In this document: one piece after another, positions 1-38,854 of the stretch
Layout of the letters: each line of letters begins with the position of its first letter
Position numbering within the stretch: position 1 is the stretch's first letter
From: Cyanophora paradoxa CCMP329
Taxonomy: Eukaryota; Plantae; Glaucophyta
DNA: 39,195 nt
Direction: 5' to 3'
Assembly (NCBI GenBank): GCA_004431415.1
Contig: QPMI01000450.1
Location: 1 to 39,195 of the forward strand
Notes under the pieces: generated by a model
The model's database searches: none
The model's input: only the letters and a program-made list of their open reading frames with translations
Told to the model about the DNA's origin: nothing
Made by a program: the position numbers and the translations under genes

Positions 1-1046
1 AGAAGCGCCTCGCCTTCTGGCAGGGAGACGGCCGCCTGCCCCTCACCCGCTTCATCATCACCCACTGCGTCGTCGACCACCACCTACCTCGTCGGCTCGG
101 AGACGGAGGGCGGCATGACGAGCGTGGCGGGCATCTGCGAGTACGTCTCGCGCACCGAGGGCCCGGACGCCTCCGCCGCCCTCGCCGCCAACATCGAGAA
201 CGGCGCGCTGGACGAGACCCTCGCCGGCTTCGGCTCCTGTGCCGCCCTACTCCTACAAGCTCGGCGGCGTCTGGCAGACCTACATCCGCGGCATCGTCCC
301 CAAGGCCCCGCTCTCCTCGGCGAGAGCCAGCCGGCGCTGGAGGCGATCGCGATCCCCGTCGCCCAGTTCAAGGACCCGGCGCCCGACGTCGGGCCCTTCC
401 CTCGTCAAGCCCCACACCAAGGGCAAGGGCAAGCGCACCCGCAACTCGGCGCCGGCCTTCCTCCCGCCCCAGCCCCCCGCCACGGCCCCCAGCAGCGCCC
501 CGGCCAGCAGCGCATCGACGAGATGCTGCCGCGCCAGGTCCGGCCCGCGTACCCCCGCCTTCCCTGTACCTCCCTCCCCTCGCCCCGTTCCTGATCCAAG
601 GGCAGGGTACCTCCGCCTCCCCCGCGAGCGCCGACGGCCCCAGCCCGTCCCCGGCCCCGGCGCCGTCCTCTCCGCGATCCAGGGCTTCGGGGCCCAGCAG
701 GAGGCCGAGCGGCAGGCCCTGGCGGCGCGCCTGGCGCGCGAGGCGGAGGAGCGGCGCCAGGCCGTCGGGCCCAGCGCCTCCAGCACACCCTCGCCTTCCG
801 CGCCGAGCTGGAGGCGGGCTTCCGCGCCGGCCAGATCTCCGGCGCGGAGGCCTCGGAGCGCTGGCGGGCGTTCGAGGCGGAGACGGCGGGGCTGTCGAAG
901 GCCTCGGCTCAGCTACCGGCGCGTGGCCGTCCCGCAGTCCTACGCGCGGCGGGCGACGCTGGAGGCCTCGCGCGCGGAGATCGACGCGGCGGAGGACGTG
1001 GCGGCGCGAGGAGGCCAGCCGAGCCTTCCGCCACCTCCACCACTGA
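1..1046 (+). pseudogene. Frameshifted, 5'-truncated viral coding region of unknown function
   Basis: Protein-like segments switch frames (KRLAFWQGDGRLPLTRFII.., MTSVAGICEYVSRTEG.., PYSYKLGGVWQTYIRGIVPK.., QQEAERQALAARLAREAEERR); no recognisable family. Confidence 0.4.
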
Positions 1047-1382
1047 GGCCCGAGGCGGTATTTTTTCTCAACCCTTCCAATCGGTCTCGCGATGGCCTCG
1101 CTGACAGCTACCCCGCATTACTCCTAGGAGCCCTCGCCGCGACCCTCACCTGGCTCCTCGGCGGCACCCCACGGCCTCGGCCGTCATCGGCGTGGGCTTC
1201 GGCTACGCCGCCAAGCCCTCTACGCCCCGGCTCCGTCTCGATGGCGACGGCCGGCATGCGCCCCGCGGGGCGTTAACTCTCCCTTTTCAAAGTTCCATTC
1301 CCCCCTTTCCCTTTTCAAAGTTGCGACGTCCTTTTGAGTCCGTTGCATTTAAATTTTCTTCATCGTCTGTACACGTCTAAAC

Positions 1383-1876
1383 ATGCCCAACGCCGTAGAG
1401 AAGCTGTTGTGTACGGTGTTCAAATCGGACTCGCGCTGCAGCAAGATCGGCGAGGCTGCCAAGGGCGGGGCGGGGCGAAGGCCGGCGGCGGGCGGAGGGG
1501 CCTAAGATAAGGGGCGCGGACCCGGCGCCGCCGGCGCTAAAGTCGATTAAGGCTGCGGGCAAGGGCCGCGGCGTCGGGCCCCTGCCCTCGTGGCGATCGC
1601 CCCGGGCCAGCGCGAGGCGGCGCACGCGGCGACGGCGGCGCTGGCCTCGCAGCAGCAGAGGGAGGGGCGCCGCGCCTGAGCGCCGGCCTCTGGTCGCAGC
1701 CTGCGCCCGCGCGCGAGTACGGCGTCAGCGCTTACTTCGACGGCGCGAACGAGCTGAGCCGCCAGGAGATCTGGGCCTGGGAGGCGCGGCGCGCGGTCGA
1801 CGGGCACCTGCCGTTGCTCGTGGCGCTCGGCGGCTCGCTCCTCATGGTCTGGTACCTGCGCGGCTTCGCGATTTAG
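1383..1876 (+). pseudogene. Frameshifted gene for a small protein with a C-terminal membrane anchor (not in ORF track)
   Basis: AAATTTTCT motif upstream; ATG at 1383 (MPNAVEKLLCTVFKSDSRCSKIGE); ends HLPLLVALGGSLLMVWYLRGFAI-TAG at 1876 in another frame. Confidence 0.5.
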
Positions 1877-1905
1877 ATAGATTTTCGAAGCGCTAGCTAG
1901 TAGAG

Positions 1906-2232
1906 ATGAGCTGGCTCGACGCGCTGCTCACCAAGACCTTTGGGCCCAAGGGCGCGCCGCGGCTGCAGTTCGGTGAGCTCAACGCCGCGATCGGCGCCAC
2001 AGTCGAGATGAAGAACCGCGAGAACGTGCTGCGCGGCGACGGAGGCGCGTGGGCGGACATTGCGGCGGGCGCGCTGGGCTCCGCACTCACCGCACCGGGC
2101 AAGGCGGGCCGCGCGCTCACGGACGTGGCCGAGCGCTTCTGGCACTGGCTCAAGGTTGCCGTGGTCATCGCCGCAGCGGTTGTGGCGGGTCTCCTGGTGC
2201 TCGAGGCTCGCGCGCTATTTTCTAAACGCTAG
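1906..2232 (+). CDS. Hypothetical membrane protein (C-terminal TM helix)
   Basis: 108 aa; VAVVIAAAVVAGLLVL; ATTTTCG motif upstream. Confidence 0.7.
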   Translation: MSWLDALLTKTFGPKGAPRLQFGELNAAIGATVEMKNRENVLRGDGGAWADIAAGALGSALTAPGKAGRALTDVAERFWHWLKVAVVIAAAVVAGLLVLEARALFSKR

Positions 2233-2248
2233 GTAAAGCGAGCGAACC

Positions 2249-2652
2249 ATGCCCCGCGGCGGCTCTTCCCCCCGTGTCTCCTTCGCTGAGAACGAAGTCG
2301 CCGCTACCCCCTGGAGCCCGGCGTCAAGCTGGAGCGCGCGAACGCAGTCTCCGTCAAGAAGGCCAAGCGCGCGCTGGTTCTAGAAGTCCCCAAGACCGCC
2401 TCGCAGTTCCTTCCCACGTCCGAGTACGACGGCACGGAAGATACGGAGAAGGTTGCATTCAACAAGCGCAAGACGTACAAGGCGATACGCGAGGGCCAGC
2501 TGCTGCCCACGGACGCGGTTCCCGGGCTGCCGGGCACCACGGCCGGCGAGCTGCTCGTGCGCAACCTGCGCCTGCAGTACGTCTCCCGCCTCCGCCGCTC
2601 CAAGGCCAAGAAGGCGCGCCTGGACTCGGGCGATAGCAGCTCTAGCTCGTAG
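2249..2652 (+). pseudogene. Frameshifted basic hypothetical protein (not in ORF track)
   Basis: TTTTCTA motif then ATG at 2249 (MPRGGSSPRVSFAENE); continues in another frame as VKLERANAVSVKKAKRALVLEVPK...SGDSSSSS-TAG at 2652. Confidence 0.5.
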
Positions 2653-2668
2653 GGCTCTGTACTCAATA

Positions 2669-2953
2669 CTACCAGTTCCTGTTCCTATCCCAGAGCACGA
2701 CTCGGGTAAAGGGCACGGTCATAGCGAACATGAACTCGGCAAACTTGGAGAAGTTCATGAGGGTCCCTAGGCGCGGGTCCTCCCAGTAGATAGCTTCGCG
2801 CAGGGACTCGTAGATGCGCATGAGGGAGCGCTCGTTCTCGGTCGCGAAGGCGTCGGAGGGCTCGTCGGGATCCGGATCCGAGAGCTCCGAGTACTCGTCC
2901 GAGCTGCCAGCGCTCTCGACGCCTGCGGCCGGGTCGGGCGAGGGGTCAGCCAT
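2669..2953 (-). CDS. Hypothetical protein, acidic N-terminus
   Basis: 94 aa ORF; ATTTTCTA motif upstream on the minus strand. Confidence 0.7.
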   Translation of the reverse strand: MADPSPDPAAGVESAGSSDEYSELSDPDPDEPSDAFATENERSLMRIYESLREAIYWEDPRLGTLMNFSKFAEFMFAMTVPFTRVVLWDRNRNW

Positions 2954-2979
2954 TCTTTGCTGGTAGAAGGGCTAGAAAA

Positions 2980-3321
2980 TCACGGGCGCCGGTACTCCAT
3001 CGAGTCGCCGCGCCAGTACTTGTTGCCGGAGGCGAGCAGCTTCATCGGCTCGCCCGTCGAGTCGTGCGTCCAGGCCTCGCCCGTCCAGACGGCCGTGCCG
3101 CCGTCCTCTAGCTTGAGGCGGTGGCCCGCCTCGAGCCGATCGCCGTTGAGCATGCGGCCGGCCATGAGCGCCAGGTCCCACTCGGTGAGGCCGCGCTGCT
3201 CTTCGGGGGTGAGGCCGCGCTCGACGCGCTCGGGCTGGCGCGCCTCGCGCTCCATGCGGCTGAGGCCCACCAGGAAGAAGATCGGCAGCGCAAAGGCCAT
3301 GAGATCTAGCAGGGCCTCCAT
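2980..3321 (-). CDS. Hypothetical protein with N-terminal hydrophobic segment
   Basis: 113 aa; LLDLMAFALPIFFLVGL; TTTTCTA motif upstream. Confidence 0.7.
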   Translation of the reverse strand: MEALLDLMAFALPIFFLVGLSRMEREARQPERVERGLTPEEQRGLTEWDLALMAGRMLNGDRLEAGHRLKLEDGGTAVWTGEAWTHDSTGEPMKLLASGNKYWRGDSMEYRRP

Positions 3322-3331
3322 TGGGCAAGAC

Positions 3332-3625
3332 TTAGAAAAGGTTCCGGGCCAGGCCCGAGAGCTGCGGGCCCAGGCGCCGGGCGGCGTAGTAGAGCGCGGC
3401 GGCCGCGGCGGCCAGGATCAGAAGGCGCGGCGGGCCGCGCGCGGGCTCCTCCAGGGTCAAGTCCACGGTCTCTGGCTCGCGGGCCGGCGTCGCCAGGATC
3501 TCGGGCTCGGAGCTAAGGGACTTGGGCCCGCGGCGGCGGCGCTGCTTGGGGGCGGAGGCGGCGGCGGCGGCGGAGAGAAGGTCCTCGGGCTCCTGCTTGA
3601 TACCTGCGCAGTCAGTAAAGTCCAT
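3332..3625 (-). CDS. Hypothetical protein with C-terminal hydrophobic segment
   Basis: 97 aa; LLILAAAAAALYYA; AATTTTCC motif upstream. Confidence 0.65.
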   Translation of the reverse strand: MDFTDCAGIKQEPEDLLSAAAAASAPKQRRRRGPKSLSSEPEILATPAREPETVDLTLEEPARGPPRLLILAAAAAALYYAARRLGPQLSGLARNLF

Positions 3626-3787
3626 GCTTGCTGGGTACCTCGGAAAATTGTGGGAGGTGCCCGGCGGCTGCGAACGTAGGATGGGGGGAGAAGTGACGCG
3701 GACGCGAATACGTCATAGTCGAATACGTCATAGTCCAAAACCTGGACTCGGGACTCGGCCCGGGCCCTGGGGAGGGGGGTACATGTT

Positions 3788-3827
3788 ATGTCCAAATGTC
3801 CAAATGTCCAAATGTCCAAATGTCCAA
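3788..3827 (+). repeat. Tandem repeat (ATGTCCAA)x5
   Basis: Five perfect 8-mers between repeat copies 1 and 2. Confidence 0.95.
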
Positions 3828-4312
3828 TTGAAAGGTTGCGGAGGTTGCGGACGCGTCACAAATACGTCATAGTCGAATACGTCATAGTCCAAAACCTGGA
3901 CTTGGGACCTGGGCCCAGACTCTCGCCAAGTTTCAAATAATAATACTGTACCCCTGTTATCTGCAAGCTTATCTTATCGTTATCGTGTCACCTATCCTAT
4001 CCCGATCCTATCGCTATCCTTTCGCGATCGCTTGACTACACTATTGCATTCATTGCTTTTGAATGTAGTTAATGTCATAGCAACTTGAACATGATGTCAT
4101 GATGATTTCAAGTTAAATACCGGGGTACGGTGTTTTTGTTCAAGTCTCTTTTTTTACCGGCAGGGCCCGGGCCGAGTCCCGAGTCCAGGTTTTGGACTAT
4201 GACGTATTCGACTATGACGTATTTGTGACGCGTCCGCAACCTCCGCAACCTTTCAGTTAATTAATTAAGCACTGGGCTAGCGCTAGGCTAGCTAGATATC
4301 GATACCAGCTAG

Positions 4313-4741
4313 CTAGCTCAGCTCTACCCTGCCCAAGTTGATGGTATCTAGCAGCGCCTGCTCCTCTAAGTCTGCACCGCCTCCTCCTAGCGCTAGCGCT
4401 AGCTCGATACCGCCTCCAGACTTGATCTCCCTTGGCTTCAGCCACCGAAGGGGCTCAGGCCACCTCCTCCTGGTGAAGCCGGTATCGTTGCGCTTGTCCA
4501 GCTTGAGGTAGCGGTAGGGCGCCGGCGCCGGCCAGTCGGGCCTGTGGCTGCTGGCCTCCTTGGCTATGTCCTTGGGCCTACGCGGAAGCAGGTCGGCCTT
4601 GGCCTTGGCCTTCTGCAGAGGGCCCAGCGCCTTGAACTTCGGTGCCTTCGTCGCCGGCAGGGCCTTCGGCTGAGGCTTCGGTGCCTTCTGCGCCTTCGTC
4701 TTCGGCTGCGGCTGCGGCTTTAGCTGCTTCGATTTCGGCAT
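4313..4741 (-). CDS. Lys/Pro-rich basic hypothetical protein
   Basis: 142 aa; has its own TTTTCT motif ~25 nt upstream, inside the neighbouring ORF. Confidence 0.55.
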   Translation of the reverse strand: MPKSKQLKPQPQPKTKAQKAPKPQPKALPATKAPKFKALGPLQKAKAKADLLPRRPKDIAKEASSHRPDWPAPAPYRYLKLDKRNDTGFTRRRWPEPLRWLKPREIKSGGGIELALALGGGGADLEEQALLDTINLGRVELS

Positions 4742-4979
4742 ACTTCTTGCTCATAAATGAGAAAAGCGCCTCGAAGTCGGCTTTTATCTCCTCCTTGGTC
4801 CAGGATGTCATCTGAGTCGGGTCACCTGAGAACGGCGCATCGAACGCCACGTGGAGCGATTTGCAGGCCTGAGCTATCATTGGCTCCGGCCAGGCCAGCT
4901 CGATCAGCTGAAGGTAGATACTGAGGGCCTTGTCGAGCTTGGCGCCCTGGGAGACTAGCTGGGAGATGGCGGGCTCCAT
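4578..4979 (-). CDS. Hypothetical protein, helical N-terminus and acidic tail
   Basis: 133 aa; ATTTTCTGA motif upstream. Confidence 0.65.
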   Translation of the reverse strand: MEPAISQLVSQGAKLDKALSIYLQLIELAWPEPMIAQACKSLHVAFDAPFSGDPTQMTSWTKEEIKADFEALFSFMSKKYAEIEAAKAAAAAEDEGAEGTEASAEGPAGDEGTEVQGAGPSAEGQGQGRPASA

Positions 4980-5138
4980 GGTACTGGATTAAGCAGCTAG
5001 CCGGGGTTCAGAAAATGGCGCCAAGTCCGAGCTTATTTTTTTACCGGCGGGGCCTGGGCCGAGTCCCGAGTCCAGGTTTTGGACTATGACGTATTCGACT
5101 ATGACGTATTCGCGTCCGCGTCACTTCCCCCCCCCTCT

Positions 5139-5169
5139 TCAGGTGAGCGCTCACCTGACCCTCACCTGA
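5139..5169. promoter_or_regulatory. TCACCTGA motif cluster including the perfect 20-bp palindrome TCAGGTGAGCGCTCACCTGA (5139-5158)
   Basis: Same octamer recurs at 5162, 5542 and (as TCAGGTGA) 17211, 17231, 17243, 32568. Confidence 0.55.
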
Positions 5170-5233
5170 ACGGCCTCAAAACCGCAGCCGCGCCGCGCCC
5201 TCGCTCACACTTCACAGCCAAGAGAAATCAAGA

Positions 5234-5518
5234 ATGTGCGCCCCCAAGTACGAGACCTGCTGCCTGACCTTCGGCATCTTCGAGTACGAGGCCATGGACG
5301 AGGATCTCGACGAGAACGGCGAGATCTGCTTCAACTACTGCAGGCTGCTGCGCAACATCTCGCTGGAGTGCCGCAAGGGCGACTGCTTCCAGCACATCAT
5401 GCTCAATCCCGCCAAGAACGAGATCACCCTGTACGCCGTCGCCAGCCCCAGCGCCAGATTTAGACTCTCGAATATTCGCGTAGCCGTGATCGAGGCCCTC
5501 CCCTCCCCAGTGAGCTGA
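5234..5518 (+). CDS. Cys-rich hypothetical protein
   Basis: 94 aa ORF with strong GC3 codon bias. Confidence 0.7.
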   Translation: MCAPKYETCCLTFGIFEYEAMDEDLDENGEICFNYCRLLRNISLECRKGDCFQHIMLNPAKNEITLYAVASPSARFRLSNIRVAVIEALPSPVS

Positions 5519-5637
5519 ATTGAACACGTGTTTTACCTGAATCACCTGAGCGCTCACCCGAGGTCAGCCTGAAGTCAGGTGGGGCGGCCTTAAATATTTT
5601 CTAGCGCTAGGCTGATCGCACACTAAGCTCAGACAAC

Positions 5638-6420
5638 ATGGCCACCGTCCGCAACGCCACCGAGATCGACCCCGCCAAGCTCGCCTTCGAAATCGATGCC
5701 AACGGCCGCATCAAGGCCAAGTACGACGGCCTGCAGGGCCTCATGATGTACGCGCCGCCCATGGTCACGATCAACCCGTGCATCAACACCGAGCAAGGCA
5801 AGGCGTGGAGCGACGAGAAGAAGGCCTTCGTCATGGAAGAAAACGGCGGATTTTACACGCTGGACCTCACCGATCTCAGCGCCGTCGACGGCCAGACGAA
5901 CCCAGCCGCGGACGAGTTCCTCAAGCTGCTGGAGGCCCTGGACGCGAAATTCTGCGAGTTCGTGCAGCAGAACCAGGCCAAGCTCAAGGTCTCGCCCGGG
6001 CGCGCCCTCTCCAAGGATCAGATCTCGGTGCTGCAGACGCCCAGCGTGCGCATCAAGGTCGACAAGGAGTCGGGCCAGGCCTTCTACAAGTACCTCAACA
6101 TGCGCATCCGCACGCAGACGATGGCGGGCAAGCGCAAGACGATCCCAGTCGTCGACATGTCCAACTACCTCATCACCGAGCGCGCCACCATCGGCACCGG
6201 AGACCTGGTGGCGGCCCTCGTTAAAATCGACACCGCCTACGCCATCCCCGAGGGCAAGTTCGGCCTCAAGTGGTCCTTCCTCGCCGTGCAGCAGTGCAAG
6301 GTCGGCGCCTTTCGCTTCGCCGGCCGCACGCCCGAGCTGGCCTTCAAGCCCTACGACAACGAGGCCGATTTCGAGCCCTACCTAAACCCCGAGTCTATGT
6401 ACACCACCCCCATGCAGTAG
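5638..6420 (+). CDS. Probable single-stranded DNA-binding protein (OB-fold, NCLDV/T7 gp2.5-like)
   Basis: 260 aa; 'YTLDL..EFLKLLEALDAKFCEFV' helix, beta-rich C-terminal half 'GDLVAALVKIDTAY..GKFGLKW...VQQ', acidic/aromatic tail; fits the expected mriyavirus core. Confidence 0.6.
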   Translation: MATVRNATEIDPAKLAFEIDANGRIKAKYDGLQGLMMYAPPMVTINPCINTEQGKAWSDEKKAFVMEENGGFYTLDLTDLSAVDGQTNPAADEFLKLLEALDAKFCEFVQQNQAKLKVSPGRALSKDQISVLQTPSVRIKVDKESGQAFYKYLNMRIRTQTMAGKRKTIPVVDMSNYLITERATIGTGDLVAALVKIDTAYAIPEGKFGLKWSFLAVQQCKVGAFRFAGRTPELAFKPYDNEADFEPYLNPESMYTTPMQ

Positions 6421-6474: not shown

Positions 6475-7278
6475 TCAGAGGCCGTTGAACTTGCCGCCCA
6501 CCGCCCTGGGCTCCGCCGCCGTCGAGGCCGCCGCCTCCGTCACCTCCTTCATCATCTCCGGGTTCGCGTTGGCCGCGTGCACCGCCAGCACCGTCTGCAC
6601 CAGGGCCATCCCCAGGCGCGCCTCGGGCCCCAGGGTCACGTAGCGCGAGTACTTAATCACCAGCTCCTCTAAGATCGGCTGCACCTGGTCCATGGAAGAG
6701 AGCGTCGCCTGCCCGAGCCCGTCTAACTTCAGGCCGATCGGATCGTACGCTTTGTTAAGGTGCTCCAGCGAGTGCATGCCCGCGATCAGAAAGAGGCGCG
6801 CCGCCTCCAGCGAACCCCGCGTGCTCAGCTCGCGCTGAATTTCCTCGTACTCTTCCTTCAGCTCGTCCAGCGGCGTGGCGAGGCTCAGCTTCTTCGTGGA
6901 CGTCAGCTCGCCCCCGAACGAGCGCCTGTACTGCGCGATCTGCCGCAGAACCTGCTTCTTCTCGTCCACGTCCACCTGCGCCTCGTCGCGCGGCCTCTCC
7001 TGCAGGTCGATCCCCAGCGCCTTTTTCACGCTCTGCTCCTTCTTCTTCGTCATTTCGATGTGCTCCTGCACGCTGAAGCTCGCGCCCTTGCTCGGCGCCG
7101 TCGGCGGCACCGTGGGCCCGTCGCCCGGTAGCGACGTCTTGTCGGCCTTCGGCGCCTTCTCGCCCTTTTCCTTGCCTTCCTTCGCGGGGCGGCCCTTCTT
7201 CCGAGGCTGCGGGATCCCCACCGGGTTCGGCCCGTCCACGGCCAGCGCGTCGAAGCCCAGCATCGCCGAGGGGTCCAT
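6475..7278 (-). CDS. NCLDV conserved protein, DUF5767-like
   Basis: LEHLNKAYDPIGLKLDG...ILEELVIKY...LGPEARLG...VH matches the family pattern E.LN..FDP..KLDG...EEL..KY...PE.RL...H. Confidence 0.7.
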   Translation of the reverse strand: MDPSAMLGFDALAVDGPNPVGIPQPRKKGRPAKEGKEKGEKAPKADKTSLPGDGPTVPPTAPSKGASFSVQEHIEMTKKKEQSVKKALGIDLQERPRDEAQVDVDEKKQVLRQIAQYRRSFGGELTSTKKLSLATPLDELKEEYEEIQRELSTRGSLEAARLFLIAGMHSLEHLNKAYDPIGLKLDGLGQATLSSMDQVQPILEELVIKYSRYVTLGPEARLGMALVQTVLAVHAANANPEMMKEVTEAAASTAAEPRAVGGKFNGL

Positions 7279-13895: not shown

Positions 13896-13927
13896 CTGGC
13901 GGGCGGGGCCTAGAAATCACAATGGGA

Positions 13928-27243: not shown

Positions 27244-27267
27244 TCGATTTTCTGATGCAATCCAAAA

Positions 27268-28327: not shown

Positions 28328-28347
28328 TCTGGAACAACTAGGAATAA

Positions 28348-30485
28348 CTACACCGCGAGTATCACAATTCGACCGTTGCCACCGTCGCTGAAAGACGAGC
28401 CACCGTTGCCGCCCCTACCAATGCCTGCTGCGTAGTGAGCGTCTCCGCTATTTCCTGCCACCTGGCCGGACCCAGGATACACCGTAGCATCCGTCAAGTT
28501 TCCTATGTAGCTCGAGCCACCGCCACCTCCAAACATTCTTGCTATTGGGTTCTCTGACACTCCGCTCCTGCTGGACCCAGAGCCTCCACCGAAGTAACCA
28601 CCACCACCACCACCACCGAACCTGTAGCCGCTTGAATCAGGCCCAGTCTCTCCACCTTGGCGCAAAGTTCCCGGGTTGCTGGGCCTGGCCCCTGAGGCCA
28701 CAACACCGGCTCCGCCAGCGGTTTGGGTGCCTCCTTGAGCCGGTATCTCTCCGGTTACTCCAACCAACCCAGCCGCACCACCGGTCAACCCCCGCCTACT
28801 CCCCCGCCGCCATTCGAATCACATGTACCCCACCTCCGGCCCCTGCAACAACCAAGTCGGTCCCTGCAACGCGCTGAATTGCAGAACGACCACCACCGGC
28901 GCCGTTTTTGTACTCCGGATCGACGCTATGGCTCCAGCCCCTTCCACCACCTCCGTAGACGGTAGCAGTGGCAGTCCCCGATACACCCTTTGGGCCGCCG
29001 CATCCAACAACAAGGATGAGCGTCTCCCCGAGGACACAGCCAATGTACCAACTACGCAAGCACCCGCGCCTCCACGGACCCCCGTACCTGCGCGTTCTCC
29101 GCCTCCACCCCGGCCGCCCATACGATGACACGCACAGCCACAGTCCCCGTTGGTACTACGAAAGTCTGGTCGGCCCCGGTGTAGGAGAATGTACCCAAAA
29201 CAGGAGCGTTTGCAGTTGTTGCACTGGCAGACGAGGACTGAGGGCCTTCCTCGCCGATCTGGTTGACGCCCTTGATGGTGTAAGTGTAAGTGGTTCCGTA
29301 AACGGTCGTTGTGTCCGAAAAGGGGCTGCTCGTGTCGCTGGCAAGGAACACGCCACCCCTGTAGATGTTGTAGGAGACGGTGACGCCCGTCACCGGCACC
29401 GACCACTCGAGCACAACAGGCTGTGCTGCCCCCGCCGCGGGGGTTGCAGTGAGCCCAGTGGGCGCCCCCGGGTCCGTGGTGACGTACGCCGCAATACTCT
29501 TCGGCCCCTCCCCTCCCGTGTTCGTCGCGGAGATCTGGTACTCGTACCCTGTACCCCAGACGGTGGTCGTGTCGCTGTAGGAGTTGGTCGCGGAGTCTGT
29601 GAGGTAGGCCCCGTCTCTGTAAATCTTGTATCCCGTCGCTCCCGTGGACGCAGTCCAGCTGAGGCTGACAGGCTGCTGCTGGTCGTTGGGTGCTGATGCC
29701 GTCACGTTCGTGGGGGCGTTTGGCATAGTCCAGACCAGGAGCGGATCGGACTTGTCGTATTCGACACCGCCCACGATGCCGGCCACCTGGTAAGAGTATT
29801 CCGTGCCCCACGTAAGAGCAGTGCTATCGTCAATGTACGAGGTAGACAGGGCACTGCTCGCAAATCCGATTGGCGTACCGTTCCTGTAAATTCGAATCGA
29901 GTCCGCGCCCTCCATGGCCACCCAGTTGATTGTGACGACTATGGCGGGTTTCGGGAAGCCCGAAGACGCGGGGCCGCCCCCGGCAATAAAATCGCCGTAG
30001 GTCTGGGCCGTGGCGGTCGTGAGCGTGGTGTAGGCTTCGATCTGCGGGCTGAAGCCGCCTATGCCTTGGAAGAGAATGTAATTGCTCATGGCACCCTCGT
30101 GGGTGTAGAGAAGCGACTGTGCGTAGGTTGTGGGCGGGGCTTTGCCATCAGAGCCCGTGCTGCTGCTGCCCTGTTCGCGAACCGCCGCCACGCGGTAGAG
30201 TCGCTGGGCCCCCAAACTAAAGGGAGAGTCCGTGTAGGTGACGGTTGGCGCATTCACCGTGGCCACGAGATCCCAGGGGCCGTTGATGCTGGTCGCCCTG
30301 TACACCTTGTACTTGACGGCGTTGGTGACCGCGACCCAGTTCAGCTGAAAGCCGTACGTACTGTTCCCGTTGTTGAGCACGGAGCCCGATCGCACCTGGG
30401 GCCTGCCCACAGTCAGCGAGATCGGCTCCACGCCATACTGCGGAGCCTGCACCACCTGCTTTTTCACGAATACGAAGCGGGGCAT
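28348..30485 (-). pseudogene. Fibronectin type III repeat protein with C-terminal ALK/LTK-type glycine-rich domain; frameshifted (~29115, ~28800)
   Basis: Repeated LxW..V.GA..YxIYR..Y.D..YxYxVxA FN3 patterns; then FSYTGADQTFVVP..VIVW, LVVGCGG, GGGRSAI, LVVAGAGGG, GGGGYFGGG, GGGSSYI, GGNGRIVI. Confidence 0.8.
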
Positions 30486-30524: not shown

Positions 30525-31169
30525 ATGACTTCCAACTGGTACCAGACCCTCAGCGGCTCACTTGACGTTGGCAACAACACCAAGGATTTCGCACGCATAC
30601 CCTCCGGCAGTTACGTCGACGTCTTTCTGCAGAATCCCGTCGTGATTCAGGTCGTTCAGAACGCCTACGCCACGCCCAAGATTTATTCCTACCAGCTCTT
30701 CTTCGACCCTCTGAGCCTCAGCGCAGAGGTTATCGAGCTGCTGCACGAATCAGGACTCGTGAAAAAGGTGGCACCTGCCACGGCCACTGCCAACGTCTTG
30801 CGCTGTCTCGAGGTCAAGTTCAGGGAGACGGGGTACGGCCCCACCGTGAACCGGTACCCCAGTTCTTCGAATCTTCCGGGTACGGGAACTTACCAGATGA
30901 GGGGTACGCTCAAGGGCGACGTGCTCTTCACGAAATTCAATCCAAGTCCCGCGACCCTGGGGCCCTCTACACGGGCGGCAACCCACGCGGCTCGACTCTA
31001 CCCCGCTTCCCCTTCACCTTTTTCAGGTTCCAGGTCTTCCCCCTCTCCTACGCCGCCGACCAGCCCCACTTCAGCACGGGCGCCAGCCTCTGCGCGGAGC
31101 TGCGTGAGTGCTCGATTTCCTACGCGTACGGCACCGACGCTGACTCTGTGCCTGGGGCCCGCGTCATGA
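30525..31169 (+). CDS. Hypothetical protein, paralog of the next gene; C-terminal frame probably shifted
   Basis: QNPV, SGLVKK, LEVKF, LFTKF motifs shared with 31228..32040. Confidence 0.65.
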   Translation: MTSNWYQTLSGSLDVGNNTKDFARIPSGSYVDVFLQNPVVIQVVQNAYATPKIYSYQLFFDPLSLSAEVIELLHESGLVKKVAPATATANVLRCLEVKFRETGYGPTVNRYPSSSNLPGTGTYQMRGTLKGDVLFTKFNPSPATLGPSTRAATHAARLYPASPSPFSGSRSSPSPTPPTSPTSARAPASARSCVSARFPTRTAPTLTLCLGPAS

Positions 31170-31227
31170 ACATCGGTGGCGACATCACCCTCTTTCACGG
31201 ATAATCTTTCTCATTTGAGGTCGCAAA

Positions 31228-32040
31228 ATGCCGACCACCTCGGCCACCATCGTGAAGACCGTGTCTGCCGGCTCGATCGTCCCCGATTTCTACGGCAACG
31301 CTGGGAACGTGGCCAACGCAGGGACGGACAAGGTGGAGTGGGACGGAAACTACGCCACCCCGCTCACCGTGAGGGTCCAGAATCCCGTCATGTTGCGCGT
31401 CACCTCCAACGATTTCGAGAATCCCGCCTCCTGCTCCGTGTACGTGTACTTTGACATCGACTCGGGCGTGAGCGCGGATGAGGCGGAGGCGCTCTGGCTC
31501 TCGGGCCTCCTGAAAAAGATAGAGCCCTCTGTGCCTGATCGGCCCGCCATTCGCGTGCTCGAACTCAAGTTCACCGCTAACACCGCCCTCACTCGCAAAT
31601 TCGGGAATGGTGCGAATCCGAACATCAAAACGCATTTAGATGGCGCCCTCATCGATGCCACACACAAGACCACGCAGGCCGTTCCCTTTGAGATGTACAA
31701 CCTCTGGAAGATGACCGCAAAGGAGATGATGACGAATGCCACCACGGGCGGCGCCTCGGGTACCGATTATTCATACGGCGCCTCGAATCCCCGTACCCAG
31801 GTCTGGCCCCGGCTCCTCTTCACGAAATTCACTTTCAAATTGTACAACAACATCGCCGGAATGCCTACCTCTGGAATGGTCGTGGGCTCTACCCTCATGG
31901 CCGAACTAATTGAGGCAGAGGCGGACTACACGACTGCGACTACCAACTCGACAGCGCCAGGCGCCGGAGCCGAAGTTTACGTGGCCTGGGAAACGGTCGG
32001 TCGCGAGTACGACACCAAGATTCACACCACTAGCGTCTAG
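31228..32040 (+). CDS. Hypothetical beta-rich protein (possibly structural)
   Basis: 270 aa intact ORF, AAAATG start. Confidence 0.75.
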   Translation: MPTTSATIVKTVSAGSIVPDFYGNAGNVANAGTDKVEWDGNYATPLTVRVQNPVMLRVTSNDFENPASCSVYVYFDIDSGVSADEAEALWLSGLLKKIEPSVPDRPAIRVLELKFTANTALTRKFGNGANPNIKTHLDGALIDATHKTTQAVPFEMYNLWKMTAKEMMTNATTGGASGTDYSYGASNPRTQVWPRLLFTKFTFKLYNNIAGMPTSGMVVGSTLMAELIEAEADYTTATTNSTAPGAGAEVYVAWETVGREYDTKIHTTSV

Positions 32041-32395
32041 ACTGGCTAAGCTGCATTAGCACCTGTGTCGCCTCCATCATCTCCCGAATCTCCTCGCTCT
32101 TCTCCTGTAAATTGGCGTACCCCCTCCTCTTCTTGCGAATCTCCGACATTGATGCCCAGCGCAGGTTCTCCCTCCTGTAGTCCAGCGGGTTGCCGTTGAT
32201 GTGTTCCACGTAGCGTCCACGTGGCGACTTCCCGAGGATCAGCTGGGAGAGGTAGTGCTTGCGCCCTCCAAACGTCTTGCTCACCCTGTCCCTGTCCACT
32301 CTCCAGGGAAACTCCAAGGCACTCGGGGGTACGTCCGAGTTGACCAGGACGTTGTAGGCGACGTCTTGCGAGTCGGTGCACCGGAGCAGGGCCAT
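32030..32395 (-). CDS. HNH endonuclease-like protein (HNH_3 type), degenerate active site
   Basis: YLSQLILG...[20 protein letters not shown] versus consensus VDHINGNxLDNRxxNLRWxT. Confidence 0.8.
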
Positions 32396-32419
32396 TTTGC
32401 CCTAGGTTCAGAAAAACCT

Positions 32420-32507
32420 GGGACTTGGGACTTGGGACTTGGGACTTGGGACTTGGGACTTGGGACTTGGGACTTGGGACTTGGGACTTGGGACTTGGGA
32501 CTTGGGA
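32420..32507 (+). repeat. Telomere-like tandem array (GGGACTT)x12
   Basis: 12 perfect heptamers plus GGGA. Confidence 0.97.
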
Positions 32508-32616
32508 AGAGTTGAAACCCAGGTCCCGGCCCAGACTTTCTCCAGGATCAGAAATTTGTCAGACAAGTCAGGTGAGTTTTTCTACCGACTTTTTTACTCC
32601 TACCACTCCTCATACT

Positions 32617-32662
32617 CTTTTTTACTCGTAGTCTTTTTTACTCGTAGTCTTTTTTACTCGTA
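32617..32662 (+). repeat. Short tandem repeat of TTTTTTACTCGTAGTC (~2.8 copies)
   Basis: Directly visible between the two inverted heptamer arrays. Confidence 0.85.
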
Positions 32663-32948
32663 TCCCATCTCGTACCCTCCTTCTCTCGACATCTCACACG
32701 AAAACTCCTACCCCTCTTCACATCCGTTTTCGGTTGCATACTCTCGTGAGCTTTCATGTCCAGTATCATGCTACAAGTCGTACACCAGTTCAGACTCTAC
32801 CTCGCTTGAAATCTCACCTGGAATGTCACCAGAAACGTCATATGCAGATTTCCGTACCCCTCTACATGTCTGCCCGGTGGTTAGGGACTTGGCGCGGCAA
32901 ACTCTCAGATCCAGAGAGATTCTGGGCCCAGACCCTGAGTCTAACTCT

Positions 32949-33001
32949 TCCCAAGTCCCAAGTCCCAAGTCCCAAGTCCCAAGTCCCAAGTCCCAAGTCC
33001 C
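32949..33001 (-). repeat. Telomere-like tandem array (GGGACTT)x7, inverted relative to 32420
   Basis: (AAGTCCC)x7 on the plus strand. Confidence 0.97.
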
Positions 33002-33071
33002 AGGATCGCGCCAAGTCGTAACTGAATAGTCGGCCAATTTTTACAAGTATGTACAATGGAATGACGCAATA

Positions 33072-34140
33072 CTATTTACAGCATCTCAAAGTCAGAGTCA
33101 TCGTCATCGGAAACCAACTCAATGAGGCCCTCGGGCGCCGACTTAAGGGAATGCGGGGAAGGGACTGCGCTGCCTGCACCAAGTCCTGCCGCTCGCGCTC
33201 GCGCTGCGCCGCCAAGGCCGCTGCCGCCTCTGCCTCGCGCTGCTGCTGAGCCTCGATGCGCGCCTTGAGCTCGGCCGCCTCCTTCTGCTTGCGCTCGGCG
33301 ATCCGCGCCTTGTTGATCTGGTACTGGACAAGGCGCTCGTGGCGCCGCTTGCGCTCCAACTCCTTGCGGAGCTCGTTGCAGAGGACGCGCTTCTCAATGG
33401 TCTTGACGTGCTGAGTCAGGCGCTCGCTGTAGTGTGACGTCACGCGAGAACGGGCAATGCCGGCGCCGAGCTTCAAGTCCTTCTCGTGTGCCTTGGCGGG
33501 TCCTTGACGCGCTCGGAGTTGTCGGTGAATGACGTAGTCTCCATGAACTTCTTCTTGACGATTGACTTGGTCTTGATAATGCGGCGCTTGCGAGTCGGGT
33601 TTTCGTTGTCGCCTTCAGAGTCAGAAGACGACTCAGAGTCGTATGGAATCGGCACGTCAAAGTCGATGAAGTCGTTGATGTCAGACTCGACGTCAGAGGC
33701 CTCGGACTTGGCGTCATCGGCGGGCTCGGGGCGGGCTCGGCGACGGGCTGAGGGGCAGATGACGACGATGACGGAGGGGGGTAATTCGTGAAGACTTGAG
33801 GGGGTAGGCCCAGGCGAGCGTCTCGGCAGCAGACTCGGCGAAAAGCTTGGGGTCGCCCCAGCCGTTGGCGGTCTTGACCCAGCCGGGGACGGGGGCACGT
33901 CGACGGGGGGCTCGGGCTTGGGTTGCTTGGACTTGGATTTCTTGGCCTTGGACGTGAAGGCGGACTTGGGAGAAGTTGCACTTCGGGGCCAGTGGCGCGT
34001 AAGATGGCATAATTGTAGATGTACCCCAGAGCGTCGGCGCGCTGCTCCATCTCAGGGGTAGCCCCTTGAGTGCCACCGGAGTTAGCCCACGTTGCTTGGA
34101 CAAAGGCGAAGTCCTCGGCAAGCTCAGCGGGAATCGACAT
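33072..34140 (-). pseudogene. Frameshifted gene: Pro-rich, acidic and coiled-coil regions (fragments 33394.., 33714.., 33473.., 33072..)
   Basis: Protein-like sequence runs from MSIPAELAEDF (ATG 34140) through several frames to the coiled coil ending at 33072. Confidence 0.55.
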
Positions 34141-34476
34141 CTGCGCAAAGGGAAAAGAAATCAGCAAAGGCAAAACGTGAGGTGACTGTGAGGGCGGACT
34201 TGTGAAAATTCGGAGAGGCAGGGTTTCCTTGGGCTGAGAGAAGGCGGCGAACCCGTTTCAAGAGTGAGGCAAAATGGCGGCGGACCGCGGTTTTGTGGGC
34301 GAATTTTTTCCTGGGCTAGTTCGCAACGGAAAACGTTGCCAACTGGCCTGAAAAAGCCAAATTTAGCGTTGGACCGAAGACAGAAAAAGGAGCCGGCCTG
34401 ACGGAAATTGCCCGAGTGCGTCCGCCGAAGGTCGAGTCTCGGATGGGGGTACACCCTCAGGGGCCCCCCTGGCCCC

Positions 34477-34947
34477 TCACCCTGGTAGTACCCTCTCAAA
34501 GGGATTTTCGAAGCCGTACAATTCTTGGTAAGTCTCGTAATCCGGGCTGTACCCCCTCACAATCTGCGGGAGCCCCATTGAAAGCCTCCGTCTATCCTCT
34601 CTCAATTCCCTGCGGAAAAGTCTACGGTCTTCTCGAGCTTCGCGCGTCACGCCAGCTGGGCGTGGTCTATGATTGTTAGGGTTGTCGTAGCCTGGTCCCA
34701 CCAGCCTCACGAAATTTTCGCGTATGGCCTCGGGGAGACTCTGGAAACGGTTCGTTGCGTGGAACTCGATCCATTCATTGAATCGACGCGGATATTGACG
34801 GATGACTTCAAGCACGCCCTGTGTGTTGGGCTCTGGTGTTATGTCGGGAATGTCATGTCCTGTGAGGTGCCAACGCCAGAACTCGCGCAGCCTCTCGAAT
34901 GCCATATGCAACTCAAAGGGGAAATCGTAATAGAGATTGCCTGACAT
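34477..34947 (-). CDS. Hypothetical protein (156 aa from MSGNLYYDFPF)
   Basis: AAATTTTCGG...AAAAATG at 34947; the longer track ORF merely reads through the repeat array. Confidence 0.65.
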   Translation of the reverse strand: MSGNLYYDFPFELHMAFERLREFWRWHLTGHDIPDITPEPNTQGVLEVIRQYPRRFNEWIEFHATNRFQSLPEAIRENFVRLVGPGYDNPNNHRPRPAGVTREAREDRRLFRRELREDRRRLSMGLPQIVRGYSPDYETYQELYGFENPFERVLPG

Positions 34948-35003
34948 TTTTCTCCCCCTCCGAAAATTTCCCCGTTTTGAGTCCAGACTCTGATTCCAAC
35001 TCT

Positions 35004-35056
35004 TCCCAAGTCCCAAGTCCCAAGTCCCAAGTCCCAAGTCCCAAGTCCCAGGTCCC
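35004..35056 (-). repeat. Telomere-like tandem array (GGGACTT)x6 plus one variant unit
   Basis: (AAGTCCC)x6 then AGGTCCC on the plus strand. Confidence 0.97.
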
Positions 35057-35183
35057 ATTTTTCTCCCATTTCAGTCCGAGATTTTGCCCAAGTCCAAATC
35101 CGGGCCCGGGATTCGAACCCTCGTTTTCGGTCGATTTCACGCGTGAAAAACGCACTTTTCGGCCTTTTCCGATTTTTCCTTTC

Positions 35184-35293
35184 TCGCGATCGCAGAAATG
35201 CCCCCGATCTCGAAATCGCGATCGAAAAGGGTCGCGATCGGGAGAAAGTCGCGATCACCAGGGTCGCGATCGGGTCGCGATCGCCGCGATCGC
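35184..35293. repeat. Cluster of CGCGATC(G) motifs (~7 copies)
   Basis: Irregularly spaced TCGCGATCG-type palindromic units. Confidence 0.8.
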
Positions 35294-35544
35294 CAGCCTC
35301 GGAGGGGGTACCCCCACAGCTGTTGCGGCGGTTATAAGAACCTCCGCAATCCAAGCGTCACTTCCGAGTCTCGAGCTCTCGGAGTTGCCTTTTCGCGTTT
35401 GGCCCATTGATGGCCCTCTTATATAATTAGTGCAGGATCTGATCCCATTCCCGTCAACATCGAGAGTTTAGTTTTGTATTTGAACAAATTATATATATAT
35501 ATTTCTCCCCCTTTGTAATTCAGATCAGATCCAAACCTCATGAC

Positions 35545-36880
35545 CATTGCGATTGCGATTAATATAGGACGTCTTCAAGGCTTAGCTTTGATCTGCGATT
35601 ACGATTAGCTAGGGCGTCCTTAATCTGCGATTACGATCAGGGGTTGGACGCCGTGTGACGAAAGTTGGACGAAAGTTGGACGAAAGTTGGACGAAAGTAG
35701 TACGAAAAGTTGGACGAAAGTCGGTCTTCATGCGTACGCCTGCACGCACAACAGACCAGCGCTAGCCGCCGCGCCGACCAGCCACATACGTCTGAGGCCG
35801 AGGTAGTGTACATTTCCACGCGCGCGCCAGACTACGGACGCGACGATGAACACTCCCTCGGTGCGGCCGTGCGACATGTGAGTCGCGAGCCCACGTCGGT
35901 CGGACTCCTTCGATCGATTTCGTGCTGTACACAAGCATCCCGCCCGCCAAAGCTCTCGATGCGCTTGGGCGCACCGCGGGCTGCGGGCGCGCGCTCAGCG
36001 GCTACGGAGGGCATCTGCGGGCGTATATCTCAGAGATCGTTGCGAGAGCCGTCCGGCCGCGCCGCCGGCTCTCCTGGTCATGGCTCAAGCTTAAGAGTGA
36101 GGCCCGCCGGACGAGCCCCGTTCCAGGCGTCGCAGGGAGGTGAACCAAACACGCCGTGTGTGACGGGTTTAAGCTTAAGCGCAAGATGTAATTGCGAATG
36201 CATATGCAAGCTTGAACGCCGGCGCAGCCTGGCCCAGTGGCAGCGCTAGCGCAGCCTGGCCCCTGGCCCTGGCAGCAGCGGCGATTAAGATTAGACGTAC
36301 GTTTCTTCTGATGCTTAAGAAGGCGGTTGAGGTTATGTTTTGCGATTACGACTACGCTTTGCGATTACAACTTAGCCTACGAGGTTACGCTTTGCGATTA
36401 CGACCTAGCCTACTAGGCTACGAGTCGCGAGCCTCAGCGCTTTGCGTTCAGGTTTCAAAAGTTTCCTATTGCGATTACGACTAGACGCCGCAGCTTTCTA
36501 GCTTCGAATTCGATTTATTAACCTGCGATTATGATCTATTAAAACAGACCTGCGATTAAATTGGTGTTCGAGCTATTTAGTGTTTGTTTTGCGATTACGA
36601 TTTGATGTGATCTAGCTTTAATGTTGCGATTAAGGTTAAATTATAATTAGAAGTCTCTTCTGATGTTTAAATTTGGCAAGTTGCCAAATTTAAACAACGA
36701 TCTCTGAGATATCCGCACGCAGATGCCCTCCGTAGCGCGCGCCCGCAGCCCGCAGGGTGCCGAAGTGCATCGAGAGCTAGGGGCTTGTCCAGCGGGCCTT
36801 GCTCTTCGGGCCAGGTGAGCCGGCGGCGCGGCCGGGCGGCTCTCGCAACTATCTCTGAGATGTCTGCCCGCAGATGTCCG
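35545..36880. repeat. Repeat-rich flank: ~12 TGCGATTA(CGA) units, (GACGAAAGTTG)n at 35657-35721, inverted ~80-130 bp repeats (35950-36078 versus 36697-36778 and 36811-36876), hairpin at 36664-36696
   Basis: Directly visible repeats; no credible ORF. Confidence 0.8.
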
Positions 36881-37786
36881 CGGGGCGCAGTCCGCGAGAG
36901 CTCGGGGCTTGTGCTCTCCAGGACTCAGGGACTTCTTCTCCTTCGTAATTTCTTGCTCATCGATTCGAAATGATAATCATGCTTTTTTTTCCATCAACTT
37001 GTTCCTGATGCCACATCCCCCCGGGTCCACATGTACACCCACCCCTCACGAGCCCCACCCCCTACGCCTCGGGAAAATCTGTGTCGAAGGCCCCATATGC
37101 TATGACAGGGCGCTACGGGGCGCTGGGGCGTCGGCGCTACGCGCGCCGACGCTCGTAGCTAGCGCTCGGCTCCCATCCCCTTTTCCCCATCAGGGCACCA
37201 GTCCCTGCGGGTTACGCTCTCACCCAAACAGCACGGGTACAGTTAAAGCGCTGTAGGTAGGAGGTCCGGCGCGCCCGTAGCGTAGAAAGAGCAAGTTGCG
37301 GTGACTGAAGATGAGAATACCATGAGCAGTTGTAAAAATGTAGGATCAAAATGATCAATTTCTTTATAAGCATCAACAATGTTTAATCCCGCCGTACGCG
37401 TCCGGGCCTAGCGCTAGCTAACGTAAGCGAGCTCGTAATCGGATTTCGCCCCCGCCGTACGCGTCCGGGCCCGGCGGCCTATCGATATCTAGCCCGCCGG
37501 CGCCGCGCTTCTAGATCTCGCCTGCGGTTCGGTCGTCCACTGACCTCCGAGGCTCCTCTTTCGCGGCGCGGACGGCCTCCCCGTGACGTACGATTACATC
37601 AACGGGCTCATTAAGGAGGTAGCGGCCGCCTCCGCGACCTCCGCGTCCTTGGCGGCTGGTCCCACCCGGTGACTCAGTGTGACTGCAGCACCAAAGCTCA
37701 AGCCGCTGATCCGAGCTCGAGCCGACCAAGCCGCCGAACTCGTGCTCAAGCCGGCCACCGGGAGTACACAAGTTTTTGCGATCACC

Positions 37787-38854
37787 ATGAGGTTCGCTTC
37801 CTGTCGCGCTGCGTTGGCTCTAGCGCTGCGCTCCCCGCACGCCGGCGCCGTCTAGGGAACGCGCCCTACGCCGATAGCTTTGACCGGGCCGGGGGTCGTG
37901 GTCGCGCGGCCCGCGCGTGGCGCGCGCTGGCGCGTGAGCCGAGCGCTGACGCGTGTCTCCGCAGCAAGCTGGCGAAAGAAGTCCTGCAGGAGGGCATCCG
38001 GTCGATGCTCTCGTCCTCCAAGGATGAGAAGACCAAGCGCGGCTTCCTGGAGTCTGTTGAGCTCCAGATCGGCCTGAAGAACTACGACCCGCAGAAGGAC
38101 AAGCGTTTCAGCGGCACTCTCCGCCTCCCGCACGTCCCGCGCCCGAAGTTCGCGGTCTGCGTCATTGGCGACCAGGTTCACTGCGACCAGGCCAAGGCTC
38201 TCGGCGTGGACTTCATCGATATGGACGGTCTGAAGAAGTTCAACAAGAACAAGAAGATCATCAAGAAGTTCGGTGCCTGTCTTTCAGCTCTAGCTATGTG
38301 TCGTTCATGCTCCCTGTTGACGATTGGCCTTTGCAGCCAAGAAGTACAACGCTTTCCTGTCGTCGGACTCCGTCATCAAGCAGATTCCTCGTGTTCTTGG
38401 CCCCGGCCTCAACAAGGCGGGCAAGTTCCCGAGCTCCATCACCCACACCGATGACCTGAACGACAAGGTGCCTTTTCCTCGTTGACAGGATGCTGTAACT
38501 TTCGGCATACGGGCCTCTTATACATCGACGCCGTAGATTAAGGAGCAGAAGGGCTCGATCAAGTTCCAGCTGAAGAAAGTTCTGTGCCTTGGTGTCGCCG
38601 TCGGCAACGTCGACATGACCCCCGAGCAGCTGGTTCGCAAGCTTTTCGTGTTGTTTCATTTCGGCGCTGACGTTGTTTGCAGCAACTGAACGTCACCCTG
38701 ACGGTCAACTTCCTTGTGTCGCTTCTGAAGAAGAACTGGCAGAACGTGAAGTCCATCGTCATGAAGTCCACCATGGGCAAGCCCATCCGCCTGGTGCGTC
38801 TTTGCTCTTTCATCGAATCATTACCTACATCTGAATGTGCGTTCACAGTACTGA
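37787..38854 (+). CDS. RPL10A: Host 60S ribosomal protein uL1 (L10a); exons 37787-37791, 37965-38272, 38337-38467, 38537-38632, 38683-38793, 38849-38854 (218 aa)
   Basis: MSKL...[25 protein letters not shown]...[19 protein letters not shown]...[16 protein letters not shown]...[24 protein letters not shown]; five GT-AG introns restore a continuous frame. Confidence 0.97.

Follow-up and report, generated by a model that had tools for sequence, protein, structure and literature searches.

A mriyavirus-like, multi-copy endogenous element ending upstream of RPL10A in the glaucophyte Cyanophora paradoxa

Contig QPMI01000450.1 of the glaucophyte alga Cyanophora paradoxa CCMP329 (assembly GCA_004431415.1), analyzed here over its whole length of 39,195 nucleotides (the window), carries a set of virus genes upstream of the host ribosomal protein gene RPL10A. 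The explanation that fits best overall, and to which we assign about an even chance, is that this is one copy of a multi-copy endogenous virus similar to the 'Gamadviridae', which is joined to host DNA at about 35425, 2.4 kb upstream of RPL10A, and which was inserted by its HUH activity. From position 1 to about 35 kb the window is intronless and densely coding with 56-70% GC; a non-coding stretch and then a spliced gene follow. The features central to the argument are:

5638-6420, plus strand: likely single-stranded-DNA-binding (SSB)-like protein of 260 aa (protein language-model (ESM) features; 22-member cluster)
8876-10321, minus strand: major capsid protein with a double jelly roll of the nucleocytoplasmic large DNA virus (NCLDV) type, type A of three (Pfam Capsid_N, predicted model)
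10347-12221, minus strand: 624-aa protein co-varying with capsid type (comparison with the counterpart in a type-C copy)
13928-14404, minus strand: RuvC-like resolvase of the poxvirus A22 family (Pfam Pox_A22, E 6.8e-8; PHROG 159, E 1.5e-5)
14428-15510, plus strand: A32-like packaging ATPase (Pfam Pox_A32, E 6e-5)
16262-17092, minus strand: VLTF3 late transcription factor with TFIIB-type zinc ribbon (Pfam, E 1.2e-24 and 4.6e-6)
17325-18182, plus strand: short HUH endonuclease, a motif-level call (HAH and YITK motifs; 12-member cluster)
18206-20179, plus strand: long HUH protein of 657 aa, with an uncharacterized N-terminal region and a C-terminal HUH domain (HAH and YLTK motifs)
35060-35425, no strand: non-coding, multi-copy terminal segment (contig depth)
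35425-35430, no strand: right junction, just after a TATATA run (single-copy contig starts, branching flank, start of a host repeat)
35427-37780, no strand: host intergenic patchwork of repeats and unique DNA (single-copy bins alternating with high-depth bins)
37787-38854, plus strand: host RPL10A (uL1) with five introns, expressed (Ribosomal_L1 by Pfam)

The 45 open reading frames (ORFs) of the window were searched with Pfam profiles. The original prediction, which was made from the DNA letters, had placed a capsid, an A32 ATPase, RuvC, VLTF3, an SSB-like and two HUH genes within about 35 kb. All of them are present at 1-35.4 kb: capsid, A32, VLTF3 and RuvC of this mriyavirus-like gene set were recognized by Pfam, the HUH genes by motifs only, and the SSB-like gene weakly. 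The prediction had also noticed no integrase, and indeed neither a tyrosine recombinase (YR) nor an rve integrase was detected in the 45 ORFs, in a six-frame motif scan of the window or in 150 stop-to-stop frames, of which 4 came from the fibre region and 146 belonged to the 155 of the unannotated regions. The same searches yielded no DNA or RNA polymerase; PolB, RNA polymerase and D5 primase-helicase were not found in the 35.4 kb, and VLTF2 and PDDEXK had no Pfam match in the ORFs or the stop-to-stop frames. The A32 ATPase scored 23.1 bits against a Pox_A32 cutoff of 22.8 and represents the only Walker A match of the motif scan in a called gene.

The capsid matched Pfam Capsid_N below the cutoff (E 8.9e-5). 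A profile built from the host capsid copies retrieved 53 distant proteins (E 6.6e-11 to 1e-3), and in an alignment of 8 host and 42 distant rows Capsid_N was matched by 50 of 50 rows and Capsid_NCLDV by 40 of 50. A structure model was then based on the alignment with the 42 NCLDV-like rows, which may bias the fold towards NCLDV; these rows had been retrieved by the profile of the host copies only. The model (predicted local distance difference test score, pLDDT, of 72.6) gave Z-scores of 33-37 to the capsids of chlorovirus, faustovirus, iridovirus and coccolithovirus, of 28-37 to NCLDV capsids overall, and of 25 to poxvirus D13. With the PBCV-1 capsid chain a Z-score of 37.1 was reached (root-mean-square deviation 2.6, 355 aligned residues), as compared to about 20 for virophage capsids (Sputnik 20.6). 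Judged by this model, the predicted capsid is closer to the NCLDV than to the virophage type. A search of the PDB with the host-copies-only profile remained without match, and an earlier model from the host copies only (pLDDT 33) was unusable.

The ESM features of the SSB-like protein resemble, at 0.92-0.97, those of Nucleocytoviricota clusters with DUF5871/DUF2738, the recognition being weak and below the threshold of the tool. DUF2738 is a family which we take to be T7-like SSB proteins. The HUH motifs HAH and YxxK are invariant in 15 of 15 aligned rows (11/11 short, 4/4 long). Aligned rows of the short HUH cluster are 93-100% identical, and the short and the long protein share 25% identity over 107 aa (pairwise E 1e-7).

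Mriyaviricetes are defined in PMC11253617, according to the available part of which gamadviruses carry a second, long HUH protein. Of the features of this class, an NCLDV-type capsid, A32 ATPase, VLTF3, RuvC-like resolvase and HUH catalytic motifs are present in the window, and the element measures at least 35.4 kb in view as compared to a class range of 35-45 kb. Thus far, a mriyavirus-type element is highly probable. The 'Gamadviridae' feature of an adjacent short and long HUH protein, the latter with a C-terminal HUH domain, is present as well, the two bearing adjacent numbers in sister copies, and this pair points to the 'Gamadviridae' (Pleurochrysis endemic viruses and Phaglo-G; PMC11253617, part available). 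Like these, the element combines an NCLDV-type capsid, A32, VLTF3, RuvC, a putative SSB-like protein and adjacent HUH genes with no polymerase in view at a size of at least 35 kb. Phaglo-G is, in the accessible part of 10.1101/2022.07.28.501842, likewise a high-GC element in an algal assembly flanked by short tandem repeats. There are differences, too: the 'Gamadviridae' host is a haptophyte, whereas the element resides in a glaucophyte; helicase, VLTF2 and PDDEXK were not found in the part in view; the long HUH protein has 657 aa in contrast to more than 1,500 aa in PEV2; and a phage-type fibre and FN3 module, dozens of copies and three capsid types are the element's own. Polinton-like viruses (PLVs) are characterized by a capsid of their own type, a YR or rve integrase and terminal inverted repeats; in comparison with these, no integrase is in view in the window, no PLV capsid stands among the fold matches listed, and one end is in view. 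In comparison with a giant-virus fragment, other contigs repeat the compact order of genes seen here.

The original prediction had left the host unnamed. RPL10A exon 2 is 100% identical to the Cyanophora paradoxa protein P0018, which settles this point, the next single-copy eukaryotic homologue among the matches listed being 70% identical. Accessions of the relatives of the capsid, SSB and HUH genes also read Cyanophora paradoxa and share the label style of P0018. Four of the five RPL10A introns were seen as GT..AG joints in contigs of the probable RNA run X15, and the first was read from the sequence against P0018. C. paradoxa is reported to be probably haploid, with about 100 Mb and short introns (PMC6704402, in the part available).

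Other copies, which the original prediction had proposed to look for, exist in dozens. Sister copies were compared as proteins from the C. paradoxa protein set, all 33 capsid models (14 clusters) deriving from this one set and, the protein of the window aside, being spread over 29 contig labels. On tig00021108 the order is g18347 (the gene at 33 kb), g18348 (HNH), g18349, g18357 (HUH), g18365 (capsid) and g18372-18375 (the small left genes), and on tig00000057 it is g153-155, g158 (SSB), g162 (capsid) and g170-171 (HUH pair). On tig00021108 the gene order is conserved all the way from the gene at 33 kb to that at 2.2 kb, and on tig00000057 from the gene at 2.2 kb to the long HUH gene. Thus, the element includes the genes at 1.9-3.6 kb as well as those at 33-34 kb and extends beyond the left edge of the window, its left end lying at or past that edge. 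In coding blocks the observed-to-expected ratio of CpG is 1.0-1.1, i.e. there is no CpG loss, and the copies are therefore young, numbering roughly 30-40 in the genome. Relatives of capsid, VLTF3, ATPase and HUH were not confirmed in IMG/VR or JGI contigs, and a 23-base end pattern had no match in metagenome contigs. A distant capsid match led to 22 loci that are 24-28% identical to that match, several of them in giant-virus bins or contigs of more than 80 kb.

The capsid models fall into three types, A (6 models, including that of the window), B (3) and C (24), with an identity between types of 58-70% among 16 near-full models. A further gene of the element is listed for 18 of these 29 labels, three HUH rows having been assigned to their contig by adjacency of accession numbers. 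Fifteen of the 18 labels have a type B or C capsid (61-69% identical to that of the window), and there the remaining genes match those of the window at 92-100% identity. The 624-aa gene upstream of the capsid varies with capsid type, its N-terminal 304 aa being 65% identical to one type-C counterpart. For the long-read assembly of the species majority-rule polishing is described in the available text; this could inflate the backbone identity but cannot create three capsid types. We infer an exchange of capsid cassettes by recombination between copies or co-infecting genomes. With three capsid types on one backbone, a capsid-based classification can split one virus.

To characterize the right end, contigs from three DNA runs (X1, X2 and X6, from 2012, 2024 and 2019, respectively) and the probable RNA run X15 were placed on 35060-38960. 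The RPL10A contig has a depth of 42.1 (X1), 71.3 (X2) and 37.6 (X6). In X2 the terminal segment reaches 2900 at 35140-35352, about 41-fold that of RPL10A, and in X6 1096-1202 at 35152-35333 (29-32-fold, a rough figure); the resulting rough copy count of 29-41 agrees with the protein counts. Junction contigs reaching 35485 start at 35396 (X2, depth 71.2; X6, 40.8) and at 35401 (X1, 39.7), so that the junction is found at host single-copy depth in 3/3 DNA runs. From 31-letter words and the contig starts the branch point follows as 35425-35430, and 35427 is the start of a piece, 43 bases long, of a host repeat present 7-8-fold. X1 alone has another single-copy contig (depth 44.3), which keeps to the element as far as 35430 before entering other DNA; the two flanks branch within 5 bases and have their first five letters in common. 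This second flank hints only weakly at a difference in insertions from culture to culture, as contigs can reveal presence but not absence. Beyond the junction, host repeats split the single-copy sequence into the pieces 35396-35485, 35849-36054, 36042-36724, 36728-36836, 37265-37582 and 37561-38960.

A real integration at this junction is therefore nearly certain in our estimate, and an assembly chimera is unlikely because of the single-copy depth in all three DNA runs. The endogenised virus claimed by the original prediction is borne out by the junction, with no contig reaching from the element to RPL10A. Its placement directly beside that gene has to be modified: the junction with the host stands, but the virus stops at about 35425, and host repeats at 35427-37780 intervene.

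How the element may function can be proposed from its gene content. Since no polymerase is in view, replication would rely on host nuclear enzymes: after the available part of PMC11253617, a HUH nick would start rolling-circle replication in the nucleus by host polymerases. SSB and RuvC would resolve the replication products, late transcription might proceed via VLTF3 at an ATTTTC-type motif, and A32 would package the DNA into an NCLDV-type capsid with phage-like fibres. Insertion could then take place by HUH-catalysed strand transfer at a fixed end with no dedicated integrase. This HUH-driven insertion, which we consider slightly less than evenly balanced, is favoured by the many young copies, the sharp end, the two flanks sharing their first five letters, the need of a second HUH gene for a job, the invariant HUH motifs and the lack of any other integration enzyme in view. 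HUH enzymes integrate DNA in adeno-associated virus (AAV), IS91, IS200/IS605 and Helitrons. The proposed analogy to AAV Rep and these elements comprises HUH tyrosine chemistry, a fixed end and a short target preference; in contrast to the element they are without a giant-virus capsid module, and the element shows no end hairpin, so that this is an analogy and not a membership. A further-reaching and doubtful proposal is that the long HUH protein acts as a rolling-circle integrase of temperate dwarf viruses, which insert at a fixed end by a short AT-rich target, are still moving in cultures and switch between three capsid cassettes. If true, this would be a capsid-encoding, Helitron-like proviral latency, which is not described for Nucleocytoviricota in the literature searched. 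Mriyaviruses are proposed to be the closest living relatives of the giant-virus ancestor, with predicted rolling-circle replication and no known integrase. In an axenically growing alga, dozens of young copies provide numerous junctions that could reveal the chemistry of insertion, together with two HUH enzymes to assay and a culture for induction.

Several observations weigh against the combined explanation. Neither Pfam, PHROGs, NCBIfam, the PDB nor the ESM Atlas returned a match to the HUH fold or profile, the only hit of the profile against the PDB being a chance one (E 0.97). No SF2 or SF3 (superfamily 2 or 3) helicase was detected in the window searches described above, although 55 of 60 mriyaviruses have one in the available part of PMC11253617. 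In a quick tree with 54 of 61 capsids, the 8 host rows form one long branch (2.03) with no labelled relative and with long-branch warnings. The continuity of 1-35059 relies on the assembly and on the gene order of sister copies, as reads were placed from 35060 only; the junction contigs include no more than 30-31 bases of the element, which is the limit of the tool for bridging, and no contig spans the distance from junction to RPL10A. Among the contigs listed there are two flanks only, so that a common end for all copies is extrapolated and this copy could be truncated. The terminal 151 nt fold no better than shuffles (z -1.64), with no Helitron-like end hairpin. The left end, with a possible helicase and a possible integrase, lies outside the window, and related groups carry rve or YR.

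The last point leads to the possibility, quite unlikely in our view, that the element is inserted by a tyrosine recombinase or rve integrase whose gene lies to the left of the window, as in the Zora, VC134 and VC218 viruses. Element genes reach up to 1906, the left end is outside the window, a genome of 35-45 kb leaves up to about 10 kb out of view, and related groups carry YR or rve in the available part of 10.64898/2026.06.19.733378. On the other hand, section 6 of the same source, as far as available, reports mriyaviruses proper to be without integration genes, and 35.4 kb already falls within the class size range. Somewhat less remote, though unlikely, is that host double-strand-break repair captured linear virus genomes in repeated infections, with some later segmental duplication and with HUH serving replication only. 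A linear genome also yields a fixed end, the flank is repeat-rich, three capsid types imply a repeated supply from outside, and Nucleocytoviricota regions without mobility genes are read as mainly accidental in the available part of 10.1101/2025.04.19.649669. However, with 30-40 copies whose backbones are 92-100% identical and show no CpG loss, the recent rate must have been high, and the two flanks branch within 5 bases and have their first five letters in common.

With regard to its identity, the element might constitute a separate small NCLDV-related lineage (Zora- or Zephyr-like) or a duplicated giant-virus fragment instead of a member of Mriyaviricetes, which we regard as clearly improbable. 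Its best capsid matches are generic NCLDV capsids at 16-23% identity, none of 50 BFVD rows listed is named yaravirus or Pleurochrysis virus (many rows being unnamed), and some genomes of Zora and Zephyr viruses likewise contain HUH and VLTF3 (10.64898/2026.06.19.733378, available part). But VLTF3, RuvC, SSB-like and tandem short and long HUH genes together fit the Gamadviridae description in the accessible part of PMC11253617, no giant-virus replication or transcription gene occurs in 35 kb, and glaucophyte elements sit in the Mriyaviricetes capsid tree of 10.1101/2025.04.19.649669 (legend of Fig. S2; source available in part). Finally, an assembly chimera of a free or episomal culture virus and a host contig would explain why no contig crosses the whole right flank, with gaps in host repeats, and why about a quarter of the sampled words of 33100-39195 is missing even from the best runs; it appears very improbable in view of junction contigs with the depth of single-copy host DNA in three runs made years apart and of the numerous diverged copies spread over many contigs.

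For a glaucophyte, embedded Mriyaviricetes have been reported before: the preprint 10.1101/2025.04.19.649669, in the part available, describes embedded Mriyaviricetes-related regions in Glaucocystophyceae and Pavlovophyceae assemblies with a viral content above 1% in Glaucocystophyceae, interprets insertions without an integrase as mainly accidental, and includes glaucophyte elements in its capsid tree. Being of the same class, from the same host class and embedded in host DNA, these Glaucocystophyceae regions are very probably the same family as the element. In the available main text neither a species nor copy number, end structure or capsid types are given and HUH is not discussed, and the words 'cyanophora', 'HUH' and 'rolling' do not occur in it. 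Methylated endogenous giant-virus elements (GEVEs) in C. paradoxa are reported in the available part of PMC12344493; these are Nucleocytoviricota-like gene clusters in the same species, but are described there as giant-virus insertions without class or copy structure. Zoravirus (VC102), VC134 and VC218 (10.64898/2026.06.19.733378, part available) are likewise small, NCLDV-related and in some cases equipped with HUH, but differ by a size of 20-30 kb and an often present rve or YR, and VLTF3, RuvC and twin HUH genes are not in the available description of them. Cyanophora PLVs are mentioned once in the part of PMC12220804 at hand, Cyanophora is not mentioned in supplement 2 of PMC11253617, and neither Cyanophora nor NDDV in PMC10120064. 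Among the papers listed by a literature search, with subscription journals outside its coverage, none was on mriyavirus end structure, HUH-driven integration or capsid exchange. New here are thus the sharp end, the copy number, the capsid swapping and the weak hint of culture-specific insertion, which favour HUH-driven integration but do not show it.

The remaining features of the element are:

1-1273, plus strand: frame-broken coding region without family match (long overlapping open frames; Pfam, PHROGs and NCBIfam negative)
1906-2232 (plus), 2249-2652 (plus, one frame break), 2669-2953 (minus), 2980-3321 (minus) and 3332-3625 (minus): five small intronless element genes (sister copies)
3680-5137, no strand: internal repeat block of four 55-90 bp repeats (+ + - -) round an AT-richer centre
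6475-7278, minus strand: DUF5767 protein (Pfam, E 2.6e-13)
13337-13729, minus strand: DUF5679 zinc-ribbon protein (Pfam, E 8.5e-10)
26629-30485, no strand: fibre/attachment module with an H-lectin-like protein, a phage tail-fibre with Peptidase_S74 chaperone (frame-broken) and an FN3-repeat protein (Pfam)
30525-32040, plus strand: paralogous gene pair of unassigned function (40% identity over 68 aa; 15-member cluster)
32030-32395, minus strand: HNH endonuclease (Pfam HNH_3, E 1.9e-7)
32419-35057, no strand: 7-bp unit repeated in three arrays (+ - -), with a common flank after each array and two genes enclosed
33076-34140 (minus, six frame switches) and 34477-34947 (minus): the two genes between the 7-bp arrays

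Sister models of the small genes at 1906-3625 are numbered near SSB and capsid in the C. paradoxa protein set, and an ATTTTC-type motif lies upstream of these genes. Frame breaks were discarded as proof of decay on the example of the gene at 2.2 kb, which is intact in the named sister copies and is broken at a run of C in the window. For the gene at 33 kb a search among proteins of 316-2000 aa gave 35 sister models in 18 clusters, several of them numbered beside HNH or the gene at 31228 and many on labels without capsid match. The occurrence of right-end genes (30525-34140) on many such labels may reflect broken assemblies, truncated copies or a non-autonomous derivative. One sister model, P0197, runs from the gene at 31228 directly into the second 7-bp array, which suggests a copy without the HNH gene and the first array or a mis-predicted intron.

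The repeats at 3.7-5.1 kb and the 7-bp arrays at 32.4-35.1 kb have a common core and flank and are candidate origins or HUH binding sites by their sequence, the block at 3.7-5.1 kb possibly acting as an origin or enhancer. This block was rejected as the left end, as element genes lie beyond it, and the 7-bp arrays were rejected as the right end itself, as multi-copy sequence runs about 370 bases further. The ATTTTC-type motif was found 8-35 bases upstream of 27 of 37 starts as compared to 5% of random windows, the pattern having been picked after viewing the sequences, and is likely a putative late, VLTF3-dependent promoter. The sequence TCACCTGA occurs 10 times (0.9 expected), 7 of the 10 being grouped ahead of the SSB and VLTF3 regions, at 5139-5549 and 17211-17250, and likely represents a putative early promoter that is read by host factors.

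Phage tail-fibre matches at 27.5-28.3 kb reach an E-value of 1.6e-17 in PHROGs; similar fibre domains in Cyanophora PLVs (PMC12220804, available part) suggest that the fibre module may be shared between virus groups. At 22400-26030 a long coding region with coiled coils and membrane segments, in several frame pieces and without family match, possibly encodes one large tape-measure-like virion protein. Three small cysteine-rich frames (13092-13320, 13734-13916 and 17070-17223) are possible zinc-finger genes, one of which could be a divergent VLTF2-like factor.

In the host flank, a repeat of very high depth at 37156-37294 (its depths add up to hundreds of times the single-copy value, and its flanks vary) is also present in the probable RNA run and may be an element resembling a short interspersed nuclear element (SINE) or a miniature inverted-repeat transposable element (MITE). 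Another possible MITE is seen at 36001-36879, where inverted arms of 42-69 bp, about 700 bp apart, enclose AT-rich DNA with repeated GCGATTA motifs.

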